Assembly: GCA_026395965.1 (NCBI GenBank)
Contig: JAPLXS010000012.1
Location: 36,116-100,115 of the forward strand
From: Candidatus Nomurabacteria bacterium
GTDB lineage: Bacteria > Patescibacteriota > Minisyncoccia > Phycocordibacterales > UBA9973
Direction of reading: 5' to 3'
DNA: 64,000 bases
Both the position numbers and the translations under genes were made by a program. Positions within the stretch are counted from its first letter, which is position 1, and the number at the start of each line of letters is the position of its first letter. Of the stretch, positions 12,500 to 19,637 are shown one piece after another. The notes beneath the pieces were generated by a model that had not been told where the DNA came from, did not search any database, and worked only from the letters and a program-made list of their open reading frames with translations.

Positions 12500-12856
12500 A
12501 TGCATATAATAAACACTGGTAAAGAACATGTAGTGTTCACTCAAATCTCGGAAGAAACAACAATACTTCCAATAGATACTTGCGAAATACTTTTTAAGCA
12601 AGAAGTTGTATTATCTGAAAATAATCAAAAAGCACATTTGGTTATCATAAAGAAAGACGACCCTTCCAAACTTATTTCCAAAATAGAGAGTATCGCTGTT
12701 CGCCCTGCTAATCGAGCATTCATTCGTACTGTTGATGCAAAATTCGTTCAAGCACAAGAAATTCTTGTTGGATTTATCCAGGACGAACAAGTGAAAGAAA
12801 TAACACTCTTTCCTTGTAGGGTTATTGATATTGTTCCAAATGGATACTTGCAGTAG
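12500..12856 (+). CDS. Hypothetical protein
   Basis: 118-aa ORF with no recognised motif. Confidence 0.4.
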   Translation: MHIINTGKEHVVFTQISEETTILPIDTCEILFKQEVVLSENNQKAHLVIIKKDDPSKLISKIESIAVRPANRAFIRTVDAKFVQAQEILVGFIQDEQVKEITLFPCRVIDIVPNGYLQ

Positions 12857-13041
12857 TATCATGAACCTCACACTCTTGAGGAATTGTCATTGACATGAGT
12901 ATTGATTTTGTCCCCGTTTTATCACAATGAAATGGAGAGCCTTGAGGAAGCAGAGCCTCATATAAAAACCGACTATTTGAAATAGGCGGTTTTATTTTGT
13001 CCGCTCGAGATTAATAATAATTATAATGATATAATGAATTT

Positions 13042-13668
13042 ATGAAAACTATTTTAATCATCTTAGTTGTTTTAATACTATGGTCTATCTGGGGGTATTT
13101 TGGTTCGCGTGTGGAGCAATCAGATTACACGGTTATCGAAAAAAAGAAAGATTATGAAATTCGTAATTATCCAGCACATATTGTAGCAGAAACAGCAATT
13201 TTGAGTTCTACATATAGCAATGCCATGAATTCAGGTTTTTCAATTGTGGCAGGATATATTTTTGGCGGAAATACAAAAAAAGAAAAAATCGCTATGACAG
13301 CACCAGTAGTAGAAAAATCTGGTTCTTCAGAGAAAATCTCTATGACAGCCCCAGTAATAGTGAATACAGAAGGAGATACACATGTAATTTCTTTTGGAAT
13401 GCCTCGCTCTTACTCTTCTATAGAGACCTTACCAATTCCAAATGACTCTCGAGTAAAGCTTCGCGAAGTATCTGCGCAAAAGATGGCTGTACTTCGCTTC
13501 TCATGGTCTAGATCAGAAAGTAGGGTAAAAAAAATGAAAGAAAAACTTTTAAATTATCTTATTCGTGACAAAGTAGAAATTATTAGTACTCCTAGCTATG
13601 CCGGCTACAACGCTCCTTGGACACCACCTTGGATGGTTAGGAATGAAATTTTGGTTGAAATAAAATAA
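13042..13668 (+). CDS. SOUL/HBP family heme-binding protein with N-terminal TM anchor
   Basis: C-terminal YNAPWTPPWMVRNEILVE is typical of the SOUL family (YNPPW..RRNEV). The N-terminus is hydrophobic. Confidence 0.7.
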   Translation: MKTILIILVVLILWSIWGYFGSRVEQSDYTVIEKKKDYEIRNYPAHIVAETAILSSTYSNAMNSGFSIVAGYIFGGNTKKEKIAMTAPVVEKSGSSEKISMTAPVIVNTEGDTHVISFGMPRSYSSIETLPIPNDSRVKLREVSAQKMAVLRFSWSRSESRVKKMKEKLLNYLIRDKVEIISTPSYAGYNAPWTPPWMVRNEILVEIK

Positions 13669-13818
13669 TTTGAGTAGTAAGGATAGTCATTTCGAGTTAA
13701 TAACCACTATTAAGGGCTATTTTATGATTGGAAAATATATAATATTATGAGATAATAAACTTATATTATGTGGAGCTGTGTTGGTTTTATTTAATAAAAA
13801 ATACTATAATATGAATAT

Positions 13819-14037
13819 ATGAGATTAAAATTTAAGGAAGTCTTTGAAGAAAATAATGATGGTTCTTTGACCCCTAAAAGGCAAATTTTTGTTAATGGTA
13901 TTAGTTTTAACCAAGGTGTTACATTCCAGAAGGGTGTATCTTTTGGTGGTGTAGATTTTCATCTTTATAAATATTGGGATATTGAAGCTGAAGAAAAAAA
14001 TGGCATTTTAGATATTAAAGGGTTTTATCAACGATAG
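13819..14037 (+). CDS. Small protein with ~4 tandem pentapeptide-like repeats (ISFNQ GVTFQ KGVSF GGVDF)
   Basis: The repeat periodicity is visible in the translation. 72 aa. Confidence 0.35.
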   Translation: MRLKFKEVFEENNDGSLTPKRQIFVNGISFNQGVTFQKGVSFGGVDFHLYKYWDIEAEEKNGILDIKGFYQR

Positions 14038-14041
14038 AATT

Positions 14042-14389
14042 ATGGTTGATAATATTCCTACAAAAAAAGAAATAGTTAGTCTTGTTGAAGCACAGGCGAA
14101 TTCAATTGATGATGTTTCTAAACGTTTTTATAGGATTGAAAGTTTAGTTAACACACAAGAATTTCGCAACGAAAAACAAGAAGCAAGAAACCATAGTGTT
14201 GCGATAGCTGTTCTTGTCTCATTTGTATTGATTGTTGGTTCAGTTGCAGTATCTGTTATTATTACAAATAAAAAAGATGCACAATTTTATTCTGATTTAC
14301 AAAAAAATATTTATGAACAAGATTTAAAGGTTCAAGATTTAAATAATCAAATTTTAAATATTAAAATTCGTAACCCTTATTTAAAATAA
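14042..14389 (+). CDS. Small single-pass membrane protein with coiled-coil
   Basis: One TM helix (VAIAVLVSFVLIVGSVAVSVII). It follows the previous ORF after a 4-nt gap. Confidence 0.4.
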   Translation: MVDNIPTKKEIVSLVEAQANSIDDVSKRFYRIESLVNTQEFRNEKQEARNHSVAIAVLVSFVLIVGSVAVSVIITNKKDAQFYSDLQKNIYEQDLKVQDLNNQILNIKIRNPYLK

Positions 14390-14398
14390 TTTAATAAA

Positions 14399-15163
14399 AT
14401 GAATTTATCTTTAAATAAAAATTTGGGTAATAAATATTCAAATCAATCGCAAAAAATAAGAGTTATTACTGAAAATTGGGTTCTAAATCAAATATATTGT
14501 CCAAGTTGTGGTGGTATTATAACTAACTATGTAAACAATAAACCTGTTGCAGATTTTTATTGTAAAAAGTGTGTTGAAGATTTTGAATTAAAATCAAAGA
14601 AAGGAAAAATAGGAAAAACTGTACCTGCTGGAGCGTATTCTAAAATGATTGAAAGGATAAATTCCTCGACAAAACCAAATTTCTTTTTTATGGGTTACTT
14701 GGGGACTTTGTGTGTAAATAATTTTTTTGTAATACCAAAACACTTTTTTATTTCAGAAATTATAGAAAAAAGAAAGCCACTTAGTAATAACGCAAGAAGG
14801 GCAGGTTGGGTTGGTTCAAATATTATTTTTTCAAAAATACCAAAAGCAGGGCAAATTTTTTATATTGAAAATGGTAAAGAGATTTCTAAAGAAGAGGTTT
14901 TAGAGAAATGGCAAAAAACAGTCTTTTTAAAGAAAATTAAAAGAGTAGATGCTAAAGGTTGGATTTTAGATATTATGAATTGCATTGATGCTTTAAATAA
15001 AAATGAGTTTACGTTAGTAGATATATATAAGTTTGAATCTGAATTAAAAAACATTCACCCAGAAAATAAGCATATCAAAGATAAAATCCGTCAGCAATTA
15101 CAATTTTTACGAGATAAAAATTATATTGATTTTGTTGGTTCTGGTAAGTATAAATTGAAGTAG
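14399..15163 (+). CDS. dpnI-like: DpnI-family (Dam-replacing family) methylation-dependent type IIM restriction endonuclease, PD-(D/E)XK catalytic domain plus C-terminal winged-helix
   Basis: 254 aa, the same length as S. pneumoniae DpnI, and collinear with it from memory: YSNQSQKIRVITENWV, YCPSCGG, PVADFYCKKCVEDFELKSKKG (D..E-x-K), NPNFFFMGY, RKPLSNNARRAGWVGSNI, IKDKIRQQLQFLRDKNYIDFVGSGKYKL. Confidence 0.85.
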   Translation: MNLSLNKNLGNKYSNQSQKIRVITENWVLNQIYCPSCGGIITNYVNNKPVADFYCKKCVEDFELKSKKGKIGKTVPAGAYSKMIERINSSTKPNFFFMGYLGTLCVNNFFVIPKHFFISEIIEKRKPLSNNARRAGWVGSNIIFSKIPKAGQIFYIENGKEISKEEVLEKWQKTVFLKKIKRVDAKGWILDIMNCIDALNKNEFTLVDIYKFESELKNIHPENKHIKDKIRQQLQFLRDKNYIDFVGSGKYKLK

Positions 15164-15281
15164 TTGACTTTAATTCAAATTCGATCAATGATCAGATCAT
15201 TATTAAGTTAATGGTTATATTTTTATATGTACTCGCAAGGACAGTCTTTGTAAGTCAAAAATGATTCCACTCGTACGCTTA

Positions 15282-15938
15282 CTACTTTCCTTTGATTCTT
15301 ATACCAGCACCAGGATATGATTGGATACCATTAATAGCTTCTAAGTCACTTGAGGAAACCAGCCCAACAACCTCGTCATTTTCTACGAGCATGATAGGTC
15401 CGCCAGAATATCCTTTTGGCGTAGGGAAATTTAGTAATACATGCAGTGATTTAACTTGCATGTTAGTGTCTTTATCTGTTCGAATGATATTTTGAACCTT
15501 AACTATGTTTCCTCTTGAATATGATATTTGAATCCTTGCGGATATTAATTCAAACTTAGTGCTAACCATTTTTAATAAAGGTTTGTTTATTGAGGTTTCC
15601 TGGAGGGGAAAACCTACAGCATACGCCTTAACGCCATTTGTTATATCCGTGCGAGAAGCTCTGAGGAATTCTGAGGAGTGTCGAGATATTCGACAAATTG
15701 TATAATCTTCTGATGGTTTGTAATAGGTAATTGAAGGATTTTTTAAAATTTCACCAGTAGAATTTATCAGGTAGATATCATATGTGTAATTTGGCATTAA
15801 TACATGGGCGGCTGTAACAAATTCTTCTTGGGAAACAAAAAACCCTGTACCAAGTAATTTAGGAAGTACTTTTTCTTTTGGTTGTTTACCATCCATTTCA
15901 ATGATGGCATATATTGCATTTTCAATATTTTGACTCAT
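15282..15938 (-). CDS. Trypsin-like (S1 family) serine protease, cytoplasmic (no signal peptide)
   Basis: His motif GTGFFV..TAAHV, Ser motif GYSGGPIM, and chymotrypsin-fold spacing. Confidence 0.7.
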   Translation of the reverse strand: MSQNIENAIYAIIEMDGKQPKEKVLPKLLGTGFFVSQEEFVTAAHVLMPNYTYDIYLINSTGEILKNPSITYYKPSEDYTICRISRHSSEFLRASRTDITNGVKAYAVGFPLQETSINKPLLKMVSTKFELISARIQISYSRGNIVKVQNIIRTDKDTNMQVKSLHVLLNFPTPKGYSGGPIMLVENDEVVGLVSSSDLEAINGIQSYPGAGIRIKGK

Positions 15939-16197
15939 ATAAAGATATTATAAGTAGTTAATTATTTTTATAATCGGAGCAATTCAGGTTGTTTTAGTAT
16001 GCTTCTCGTACTAGCACGTGATGGCGAGCGTTCAACAGATAGAACCAATTAGATTCCTTACCCCTAACGCTGTTCATTACTTTTTTAGTATAACAGAACG
16101 ACCCTTCTCGTACTATCAAGTATTGTACTAATATTAGAGATTTTTATTCCCCAGAAAATGAGGAATAATCAATTACGAAATAGATATAAAAAGAAAT

Positions 16198-16884
16198 TTA
16201 ATTAACAGGGATAGTTTCAAACATATTATCAAAACTTGAAACCTTCAATGTATTAACTATTTCTTCTGAAGCTTTAACTAGATCTTTCATTATCTGGAAA
16301 GACAAATCTGTTACCTCAATTAATTTACCATGATCAAAAGAATATGTATTTTCATTATATACTATTGGTAAACTAGCTTTTTTTTGCTTATCACAATAAT
16401 AACCATTATTATGAACAAGATTTCTTAAATGTCTTCCAAGATCAAAAACTGAAGAAAGATGTTTGGTTTCTATTTCTTTAAAAAGACATTCGTAAATGTT
16501 TTTAAAGTCGCCGAGCCCGTCATTACATGCACCTGGCTTTACATGTAATAGAATATTTCTAAGTGACCATTCAAGCCGTGAATAGAATATTAGATAGTAG
16601 CCCTTATACATACATACCTCAAATTCTCTCTTAAATTTAGTTATATCTTCTGGAGTTAACAGTTTCTTTTCCTCCCAAAAATCCACTTCTTTAAATTTGG
16701 TTTGAGCCAATTCAATAGCAACAGCATATGAATGTAATACATTGGATAGTTGACCAAAAATTGTCACCCTTAGATCATTCTTATCATCTTTCATTGAAGG
16801 ATATTTCTTTAGATTATCCTCATATAATTTAAAAGATAGTTCAACAGCCTGAGTAAAATTTGTGATATTGCTTGCATTTAACAT
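16198..16884 (-). CDS. Hypothetical protein with two R-x(4-6)-H motifs (possible HEPN-like / Abi-like)
   Basis: RNILLH (R-x4-H) and RHLRNLVH (R-x6-H) in a helical 228-aa protein. The assignment is tentative. Confidence 0.4.
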   Translation of the reverse strand: MLNASNITNFTQAVELSFKLYEDNLKKYPSMKDDKNDLRVTIFGQLSNVLHSYAVAIELAQTKFKEVDFWEEKKLLTPEDITKFKREFEVCMYKGYYLIFYSRLEWSLRNILLHVKPGACNDGLGDFKNIYECLFKEIETKHLSSVFDLGRHLRNLVHNNGYYCDKQKKASLPIVYNENTYSFDHGKLIEVTDLSFQIMKDLVKASEEIVNTLKVSSFDNMFETIPVN

Positions 16885-17924: not shown

Positions 17925-18120
17925 CGTCCTTAACAAAGGGGACAGAGACCGTGAGTACACTTATCGAACCCTACTGGTTCAGTACACCTTTTCAAAGTAT
18001 TTTTGCATAGCAAAAATACTTAATGAAAAGCTTTTCGATTCTCTGGCGCAAGCAAAGAAGTTTGCTTGCTTAGGGTCACAAATTAAAAAGCACCGACTGA
18101 AAAGTCGGCTTTTTAATTTG
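17925..18120 (-). repeat. Copy 2 of the tRNA-trailer structured repeat element, immediately 3' of tRNA-Glu
   Basis: It contains an inverted imitation of the tRNA-Glu 3' end (GTGACCCTA-[23-nt hairpin]-GCCAGAGAATCGAA) and the conserved core CGATAAGTGTACTCACGGTCTCTG. A terminator hairpin (18085-18115) makes a ~28-bp extended palindrome with the tRNA acceptor end. Confidence 0.6.
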
Positions 18121-18192
18121 TGACCCTACAGAGAATCGAACTCTGATTTTATCCTTGAGAAGGATACGTCCTAACCGTTAGACGATAAGGCC
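18121..18192 (-). tRNA. tRNA-Glu (anticodon CUC)
   Basis: Manual fold gives acceptor GGCCTTA/TAGGGTC (two G-U pairs), D-arm TCGTCTAACGGTTAGGACG, anticodon stem-loop TATCC-TTCTCAA-GGATA, and T-arm CAGAG-TTCGATT-CTCTG. CCA is not encoded. Confidence 0.8.
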
Positions 18193-18944: not shown

Positions 18945-19637
18945 ATGAAAAATGAAACGGGAACTCTATATATAGTAGCAACTCCGATCGGAAATCTAGA
19001 GGATATCACACTTCGGGCACTTCGTGTTCTTAAGGAAGTTGATACTATTTTATGTGAAGATACTCGTACAACTCGAGTTTTGTTAAATAAATACGATATA
19101 CATACCAAAACTATGAGTTACAACGCTCATGCGACTGACAATAAAGAGTCAGTCATTATTAAGATGCTTAAAGAGGGTAAAAACCTGGCTCTAGTTTCCG
19201 ATGCTGGAACCCCATGTATTTCTGATCCGGGGGTTATGCTAGTAGCCAATGTTAAAAGTGAGCTAGGCGATGAATCAAAAGTTGTACCTATCCCTGGGCC
19301 GAGTGCTCTTGTCTCTGCTCTTTCAGCTAGTGGAGTATCATCGGCAGAATTTGTATTTTTGGGTTTTCTTCCTCACAAAAAGGGTAGAGAGACACTTTTT
19401 AAAGAGATAGCAAACAGCAAGAGGGTTATTGTTTTCTACGAGTCTACTCATAGGATTTTGAAAACATTGGCTTCTTTGGTATCTCACTCTCCAGAATTCC
19501 AGATTGTTATCGGAAGAGAAATTACAAAAACATTTGAAGAATTTGTTCACGGTACGCCCTCTGAAGTATTGGAATATTTTACTGTAAATACTGATAAGCA
19601 AAGAGGGGAATTTGTTGTGATTGTAGACCCTAAATAA
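18945..19637 (+). CDS. rsmI: 16S rRNA (cytidine1402-2'-O)-methyltransferase RsmI (tetrapyrrole methylase fold)
   Basis: The N-terminal motif LYIVATPIGNLEDITLRALRVLKEVDTILCEDTR is characteristic of RsmI. Confidence 0.85.
   Translation: MKNETGTLYIVATPIGNLEDITLRALRVLKEVDTILCEDTRTTRVLLNKYDIHTKTMSYNAHATDNKESVIIKMLKEGKNLALVSDAGTPCISDPGVMLVANVKSELGDESKVVPIPGPSALVSALSASGVSSAEFVFLGFLPHKKGRETLFKEIANSKRVIVFYESTHRILKTLASLVSHSPEFQIVIGREITKTFEEFVHGTPSEVLEYFTVNTDKQRGEFVVIVDPK

Follow-up and report, generated by a model that had tools for sequence, protein, structure and literature searches.

Does a restriction endonuclease gene that lies directly behind two very small genes have functional partners in them? 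The question is raised by a locus in a 64-kb stretch of DNA (64,000 nucleotides (nt), G+C about 31%; hereafter the window) from a Candidatus Nomurabacteria bacterium, where an open reading frame (ORF) encoding a DpnI-family endonuclease, dpnI, follows two small ORFs that we call orf72 and orf115 after the lengths of their products in amino acids (aa). A preliminary description of this DNA had recognized the endonuclease and had speculated that the small upstream ORFs might provide a regulator or DNA-mimic partner for it. Our analysis indicates that the locus very probably holds an intact DpnI gene carried on a cassette of about 0.85 kb behind an unrelated pair of backbone genes, and that this pair are not partners of DpnI. 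The coordinates of all features are collected in Table 1.

The DpnI-family endonuclease

The product of dpnI matches both Pfam families of the enzyme far above their cut-offs. The hidden Markov model (HMM) for DpnI (PF06044) aligns to residues 1-179 (E = 3.6e-73; 245.6 bits with a cut-off of 26.7; profile positions 1-182 of 183) and that for the winged-helix family DpnI_C (PF17726) to residues 184-252 (E = 1.8e-33; 114.9 bits with a cut-off of 23). Residues 1-252 of the 254-aa protein are collinear with the solved DpnI of S. pneumoniae (4ESJ/4KYW) at E 7.4e-82, and the PADLOC model mREase_II ("Type II methyl-directed restriction enzyme") matches it at 7.7e-105. The roles of the catalytic, zinc-binding, guanine-contacting and methyl-pocket residues of DpnI were taken from published work (PMC3424567, PMC4117772). 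The catalytic residues are kept in the window protein as E25, D52, E63 and K65 (pneumococcal E25, D53, E64 and K66), the Cys4 zinc site as C34, C37, C55 and C58, the guanine contacts as N47, R125 and R134 (pneumococcal N48, R126 and R135) and the methyl-binding cleft as L128, R134, W137 and G139 (pneumococcal L129, R135, W138 and G140), the numbering being offset by one from the pneumococcal protein beyond residue 40. These functional residues are essentially invariant across the 83 homologues compared, and the ORF is full length and free of frameshifts and premature stop codons. Because all published functional residues are present, the gene is, as judged from its sequence, an intact orthologue of DpnI whose specificity is expected to be unchanged, and the enzyme is probably active. 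The alignment, both Pfam domains and the conserved residues thus bear out what the preliminary description had said of this ORF, namely that it encodes a modification-dependent endonuclease collinear with pneumococcal DpnI and of the same length, with the catalytic block and the C-terminal winged helix.

As a monomeric PD-(D/E)XK and winged-helix enzyme of Type IIM, this DpnI would cut GATC only where the adenines are N6-methylated. Encoded by a solitary gene without a cognate methylase, it would restrict incoming Dam-methylated DNA, and the host would have to hold its own GATC sites, 129 of which lie in the window, unmethylated. The identification is in itself routine, as DpnI-type genes number in the thousands (at least 6681 clusters match pneumococcal DpnI at E<=1e-60) and already figure in catalogues of defence genes. 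The question of partners was addressed by comparing the neighbourhoods of dpnI and of the small genes across genomes.

The upstream gene pair and the dpnI cassette

The DpnI comparison set consisted of 80 loci (designated by L numbers) from the closest DpnI-encoding species-representative genomes, most of which bear names of Patescibacteria or of the candidate phyla radiation (CPR), and the neighbourhood of each dpnI was searched to 6 kb. In none of the 80 DpnI loci from other genomes does orf72 or orf115 occur within this distance of dpnI. Seen from the side of the pair, about 20 loci are informative; only 5 of them encode DpnI directly downstream, and the other 15 or so are without it. The five loci with the trio are the window, L086/L087, L088, L099 and one ENA contig. 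The pair comes after the ATP synthase operon and rsmI in L083, L110 and L085, and the window contains both of these as well (at 29.9-39.5 kb and 18945-19637, respectively). Since the pair lies beside ATP synthase and rsmI genes in relatives and both are nearby in the window, it would belong to the chromosomal backbone; since most pair loci lack DpnI and the 80 DpnI loci lack the pair, its products would not be DpnI partners. Nor would the pair be a substitute for the accessory genes that usually follow dpnI (see below), because L086 has both. This genomic context indicates that orf72-orf115 is a conserved two-gene backbone module of Paceibacteria/Nomurabacteria and not a set of DpnI regulators or DNA mimics. 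The speculation about a DNA-mimic or regulatory partner is accordingly not upheld by the conservation of the small ORFs, and when a genome is compact, the mere adjacency of genes says little about partnership.

Both small ORFs are genuine conserved genes. Homologues form 83 clusters for orf72 and 54 for orf115, and an orf72 homologue directly precedes the orf115 homologue in every fetched locus that covers that upstream sequence. In the window the two ORFs are separated by 4 nt and orf115 is separated from dpnI by 9 nt, all three being read in the same direction, as had been described. One orf115 cluster is identical to the window protein and comes from a Candidatus Nomurabacteria metagenome-assembled genome (MAG); together with the Patescibacteria MAGs found among the relatives, this agrees with the earlier attribution of the DNA to a host with a reduced genome.

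A profile search of 1.84 billion representatives recovered 448 relatives of orf72, nearly all of them stand-alone proteins of about 72 aa, and the few longer ones carry no informative Pfam domain. Searches of NCBIfam, PHROGs and PADLOC gave no match for either orf72 or orf115. The claim that orf72 contains four pentapeptide-like repeats, and hence a fold used by DNA mimics, had to be abandoned: no Pfam family, Pentapeptide (PF00805; Qnr and MfpA) included, matches it even at E<=10, its G[IV]xF motifs begin at residues 27, 33, 39 and 44 and so are spaced 6-6-5, and its confident AlphaFold2 (AF2) model (predicted local distance difference test, pLDDT, 94) shows a small beta fold and not a beta-helix. 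Comparison of the model with the PDB yielded no structural neighbour, and no pentapeptide-repeat protein was among the matches. The transmembrane (TM) prediction made earlier for orf115 fared better. A single strongly hydrophobic stretch occupies residues 55-73 of its product (mean Kyte-Doolittle value 2.85) and has helical regions on either side; the AF2 model is one long helix from residue 8 to residue 110, and conservation is strong over the last 35 residues. In one source a homologue is labelled 'FtsB'; we rejected membership of the FtsB/DivIC-like divisome proteins, as no DivIC or FtsB match was obtained at E<=10 and the TM segment is central, whereas in those proteins it is N-terminal and precedes a coiled coil.

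Nucleotide comparison places a boundary between the pair and dpnI. In blastn alignments with L003, L002, L012 and L029, which have DpnI only, homology to the window runs from 14377-14393 to 15188-15228 and begins at about 14385, the orf115 stop codon; the trio loci L086 and L088 are homologous to the window over 13772/13788 to 15228/15229. Upstream of the dpnI ATG the sequence is otherwise not conserved among loci; downstream it is. The simplest history would be a single insertion, in one sub-lineage of Paceibacteria/Nomurabacteria, of the dpnI cassette directly behind the orf115 stop codon of a pre-existing pair. The cassette lacks a conserved promoter of its own and would most likely be transcribed by read-through from the pair. 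A terminator scan of the locus predicted no terminator and found no GC-rich stem with a T-run, and an Rfam scan of 12800-16200 gave zero matches.

In most related loci the genes found beside dpnI are located on its other side, where small co-directional genes of a few families follow it. One family of 60-170 aa has 32 members in about 30 of the 80 loci and a 67-aa Zn-ribbon family is found behind dpnI in 12 loci; examples of loci with accessory genes are L003, L006, L004, L008, L050, L086, L113 and L114. One of the downstream families matches DpnD-PcfM (PF14207, 1e-8). In Streptococcus, a gene encoding DpnD_N and DpnD-PcfM overlaps the dpnI stop codon, the Flavobacterium dpnI locus carries an AF_1447 miniprotein, and the database protein P0188 is a fusion of DpnI with AF_1447. 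Across the DpnI family the recurrent partners are these small downstream genes (DpnD-like, AF_1447-like and Zn-ribbon). The window has no co-directional accessory gene after dpnI. Its homology to L003, L086 and L088 stops at an ATG (15227-15229) that opens a gene of 142-162 aa in those loci; in the window this ATG starts an 8-codon relic, which is followed by a convergent gene. Comparison with these loci indicates that the accessory gene of the window has been deleted, an event that would have left behind the start-codon relic and a promoter-like element bearing GATC sites.

The locus could also be read as a true three-gene module of one sub-lineage, in which the membrane protein and its small partner hold DpnI in place, gate it or regulate it, for instance where DNA enters. 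Some observations weigh on this side, against an insertion behind unrelated genes. Five independent contigs, no two with the same outer flanks, keep the trio together with gaps of 1-9 nt. The DpnI alleles of the trio, which are 64% to 85% identical, are scattered in the DpnI tree and are not mutual closest relatives, which could mean that dpnI was captured repeatedly at one position. The reading preferred here also has limits of its own: the orf72 and DpnI trees are neighbour-joining trees without support values, the activity and specificity of DpnI are read from its sequence, the proposed read-through is drawn only from the 4- and 9-nt gaps and the lack of a predicted terminator, and the search of the genome for Dam covers the 64-kb window only. 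A three-gene module is nevertheless quite unlikely given the roughly 15 pair loci without DpnI, the three relatives with the pair beside ATP synthase and rsmI, and the 80 DpnI loci without the pair. Moreover, the DpnI-linked pair loci make up a single clade of the orf72 tree, for which one insertion followed by allele exchange suffices, the homology block of the DpnI-only loci stops at the orf115 stop codon, and neither orf72 nor orf115 matches a defence, DNA-binding or DNA-mimic family. It is very improbable that the DpnI homologue of the window is no working restriction enzyme but part of a decaying cassette, or is kept for a role other than defence, even if the cassette has been partly degraded by loss of the accessory gene and there is a precedent in drg, which is reported to affect viability and biofilm in N. 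gonorrhoeae (PMC4269198). The ORF is undamaged, with its functional residues kept as in the 83 homologues, and a lack of any co-directional ORF after dpnI is also seen at several other loci (L115, L041 and L058 among them), where unrelated sequence or a convergent gene follows. An intact dpnI cassette behind an unrelated backbone pair is therefore the reading that we retain.

Other types of gene were also observed downstream of dpnI in related genomes. A 331-aa fusion of a Pol-beta-type nucleotidyltransferase domain with an N6_N4 DNA methylase is found, complete or in pieces, a short way downstream of dpnI in many loci: it is encoded in L026 (1988-2980) and L036 (6773-7765), and fragments of it occur in L015, L017, L032, L034, L038, L040, L044, L050-L052, L072 and L086. 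The methylase of this fusion should not be specific for the adenine of GATC, as DpnI would cut such DNA. On the ENA contig of ERZ1426827, downstream of its trio, a convergent reverse-transcriptase gene (RVT_1, 434 aa) lies just past dpnI and a 67-aa ORF, which hints at mobile-element activity around dpnI cassettes.

A promoter-like element bearing GATC sites

The only unexpected feature of the locus is the element found immediately after the dpnI stop codon. It contains GATC, the target sequence of the enzyme itself, at 15183, 15190 and 15195. This is the tightest cluster of three GATC sites in the 64 kb, and the window is free of GATC between 13511 and 15183. In a mostly Patescibacteria clade the element stands in front of the small accessory genes, with the consensus TTGACttt-N10-ATTyGATCAAnGATCAg, and a search with the pattern TTGAY-N14-GATCAANGATC returned the element as the sole match in the window, with 0.01 expected. 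The same geometry is found behind dpnI in about 35 of the 80 related loci. TTGAC (TTGAT in three) stands immediately after the dpnI stop codon in 33 of the 80, and the first GATC is at offset 19 in 31 of these 33, the remaining two having an extra earlier GATC. In further loci a TTGACA has moved 6 nt into the coding sequence with the spacing retained. Over the 33 loci the element is as conserved as second codon positions while the flanking bases drift, the pairwise identity being 0.90 for TTGACT and 0.86 for GATCAAnGATCA, as compared with 0.47 for third codon positions and 0.37 further downstream. GATC is rare inside the dpnI genes (L001-L099; 0.5 per kb) and dense just after them (8.8 per kb), the overall density being 2.25 per kb.

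Its boxes are arranged as in a sigma-70 promoter, with a -35 hexamer, a spacing of 17 nt and a -10 sequence AAnGAT. The ATG of the downstream ORF lies 6-10 nt past the -10 in 18 of 31 loci, which suggests that leaderless transcripts would start from the element in many loci. Relative to the inferred start, GATC would be located at about -16..-13 and -9..-6 and so overlap the putative -10 region. The element is not present behind dpnI in the Neisseria, Streptococcus and Flavobacterium loci, and a literature search found no description of such a GATC-bearing element after dpnI. An exact-pattern scan of the IMG/VR viral contigs gave five matches, none of them beside a DpnI gene, and these were dismissed as chance. 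In the three-GATC variants of the element (the window, at 15195-15216, and L003, L086, L029, L042 and L014) the promoter-like boxes are succeeded by an inverted repeat, ATCATTA...TAATGGT, placed in the leader of the downstream gene.

Promoters that respond to Dam methylation through GATC in the -10 region are known, for example pIN of the IS10 transposase, as are restriction-modification promoters that contain the recognition site of their own system. The element could be a methylation-sensing or DpnI-bound promoter that ties expression of the accessory genes to the Dam mark that DpnI attacks. We put this forward tentatively, as a minority possibility. If it is true, the orphan promoter of the window would fire antisense into the adjoining trypsin-like protease gene, and the element would offer a simple way to test what dpnD-type genes do, which has long gone unexplained; it is the only part of the locus that might repay experiment. 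That the GATC cluster is instead due to chance or to structure only (a weak terminator hairpin, for instance), and serves as neither promoter nor operator, is unlikely. The window sequence AATGATCaGATCATT forms a palindrome of 15 nt, a region of 111 nt folds slightly better than its shuffled versions (z = -2.2), and sigma-70-like hexamer matches are no commoner in this AT-rich sequence than in shuffled sequence, all of which would fit such an explanation. However, the palindrome is not conserved, most loci having only two GATC sites, and there is no GC-rich stem with a T-run. A fixed TTGAC-N14-GATCAAnGAT spacing that persists even where TTGACA lies 6 nt within the coding sequence, conservation at the level of second codon positions between drifting flanks, the position of the next ATG in 18 of 31 loci and the jump in GATC density at the end of dpnI all argue against a chance or structural feature.

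Dam status, neighbouring genes and known systems

The host had been inferred to be Dam-negative, and what was found in the part of the genome covered, the 64-kb window, fits that claim: it contains no D12-class or N6/N4 methyltransferase and no dam remnant beside dpnI. The Dam probe was an approximate sequence, which still recovers D12-class ORFs in L036 and L051 (both Pfam-confirmed as MethyltransfD12). In the three relatives L036, L038 and L068 a truncated dam ORF ends 16 codons past DPPY and 3 nt before the dpnI ATG. Pfam confirms the dam of L036 (5260-5997) by a match to PF02086 over profile positions 1-198 of 253, and the truncated dam of L038 and L068 was identified by tblastn alone. A nearly complete dam-like ORF is found in L051 (4054-4923), 1 kb upstream of dpnI. 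On these grounds the host could plausibly be Dam-negative, the claim for the genome as a whole standing on the 64 kb searched. Under-representation of GATC was discarded as a signal of Dam status, as its observed/expected ratio of 0.72 in the window is no different from those of ACGT, CCGG and TCGA.

Downstream of the relic, the window encodes a peptidase convergent to dpnI, an adjoining ORF and a tRNA (Table 1). With dpnI they have the look of a small islet, variable or defensive, set between rsmI and the backbone pair.

Table 1. Features of the dpnI locus, in window coordinates.
Feature	Position	Strand	Remarks
orf72, 72-aa small soluble protein, first gene of the backbone pair	13819..14037	+	Not a pentapeptide-repeat protein
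orf115, 115-aa single-pass membrane protein, second gene of the backbone pair	14042..14389	+	Homologues, hydropathy, AF2 model
Mobile dpnI cassette (putative)	14385..15229	.	Nucleotide homology block common to DpnI loci without the upstream pair
dpnI, 254 aa	14399..15163	+	Intact DpnI-family Type IIM endonuclease, predicted G(m6A)TC cutter (m6A, N6-methyladenine); Pfam, PDB and PADLOC matches
Promoter-like element after the dpnI stop codon	15164..15198	+	TTGACT 15164-15169, 17-nt spacer, AATGAT 15187-15192
Relic start of the lost accessory gene (predicted)	15227..15253	+	ATG + 7 codons + stop
Trypsin-like peptidase, convergent to dpnI	15282-15938	-	Matches protease domains of the defence models RT-Protease_XI (4e-13), LmuA and HamA
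228-aa ORF	16198-16884	-	No family match; adjoins the peptidase gene
tRNA-Glu	18120-18192		

Patescibacteria commonly carry DpnI cassettes, and some of these are seated on a truncated dam. This matches the event known from Neisseria and bears on how these episymbionts tell self DNA apart from the DNA of neighbours or hosts that are Dam-positive. Phage and plasmid collections yielded only the Neisseria drg, from a chromosome that is catalogued as a plasmid, and isolated fragments of the winged-helix domain.

A close counterpart is R.DpnI of S. pneumoniae (dpnC), also of Type IIM. It has the same length as the window protein, and both combine a PD-(D/E)XK domain that carries a Cys4 zinc site with a winged helix at the C-terminus. 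In Streptococcus, however, dpnC overlaps dpnD and there is no intergenic element, whereas in the window, from a Patescibacterium host, the accessory gene appears to have been deleted and the element follows the stop codon. The "dam-replacing" arrangement has been described in Neisseria (PMC516771, PMC4269198). Neisseria drg/NmeBII belongs to the same family (PF06044, 'Dam-replacing family') and is 44.5% identical to the window protein over the full length; drg is a solitary G(m6A)TC endonuclease gene in a Dam-negative host, and the window gene is likewise solitary. A Neisseria-like replacement, with dam cut off at dpnI, is seen in the relatives L036, L038 and L068. In contrast, the window has no dam remnant and its cassette would lie behind an unrelated pair of small genes, while drg lacks the GATC element. 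With the pentapeptide-repeat DNA mimics Qnr and MfpA the sole likeness is the short G-hydrophobic-x-F run in orf72. The element itself can be compared with Dam-sensitive promoters, in that GATC, present two or three times, overlaps the -10 of a sigma-70-like promoter; it differs from them in that its sites are the target of a methyl-dependent nuclease encoded just upstream, in a host that is expected to be Dam-negative.

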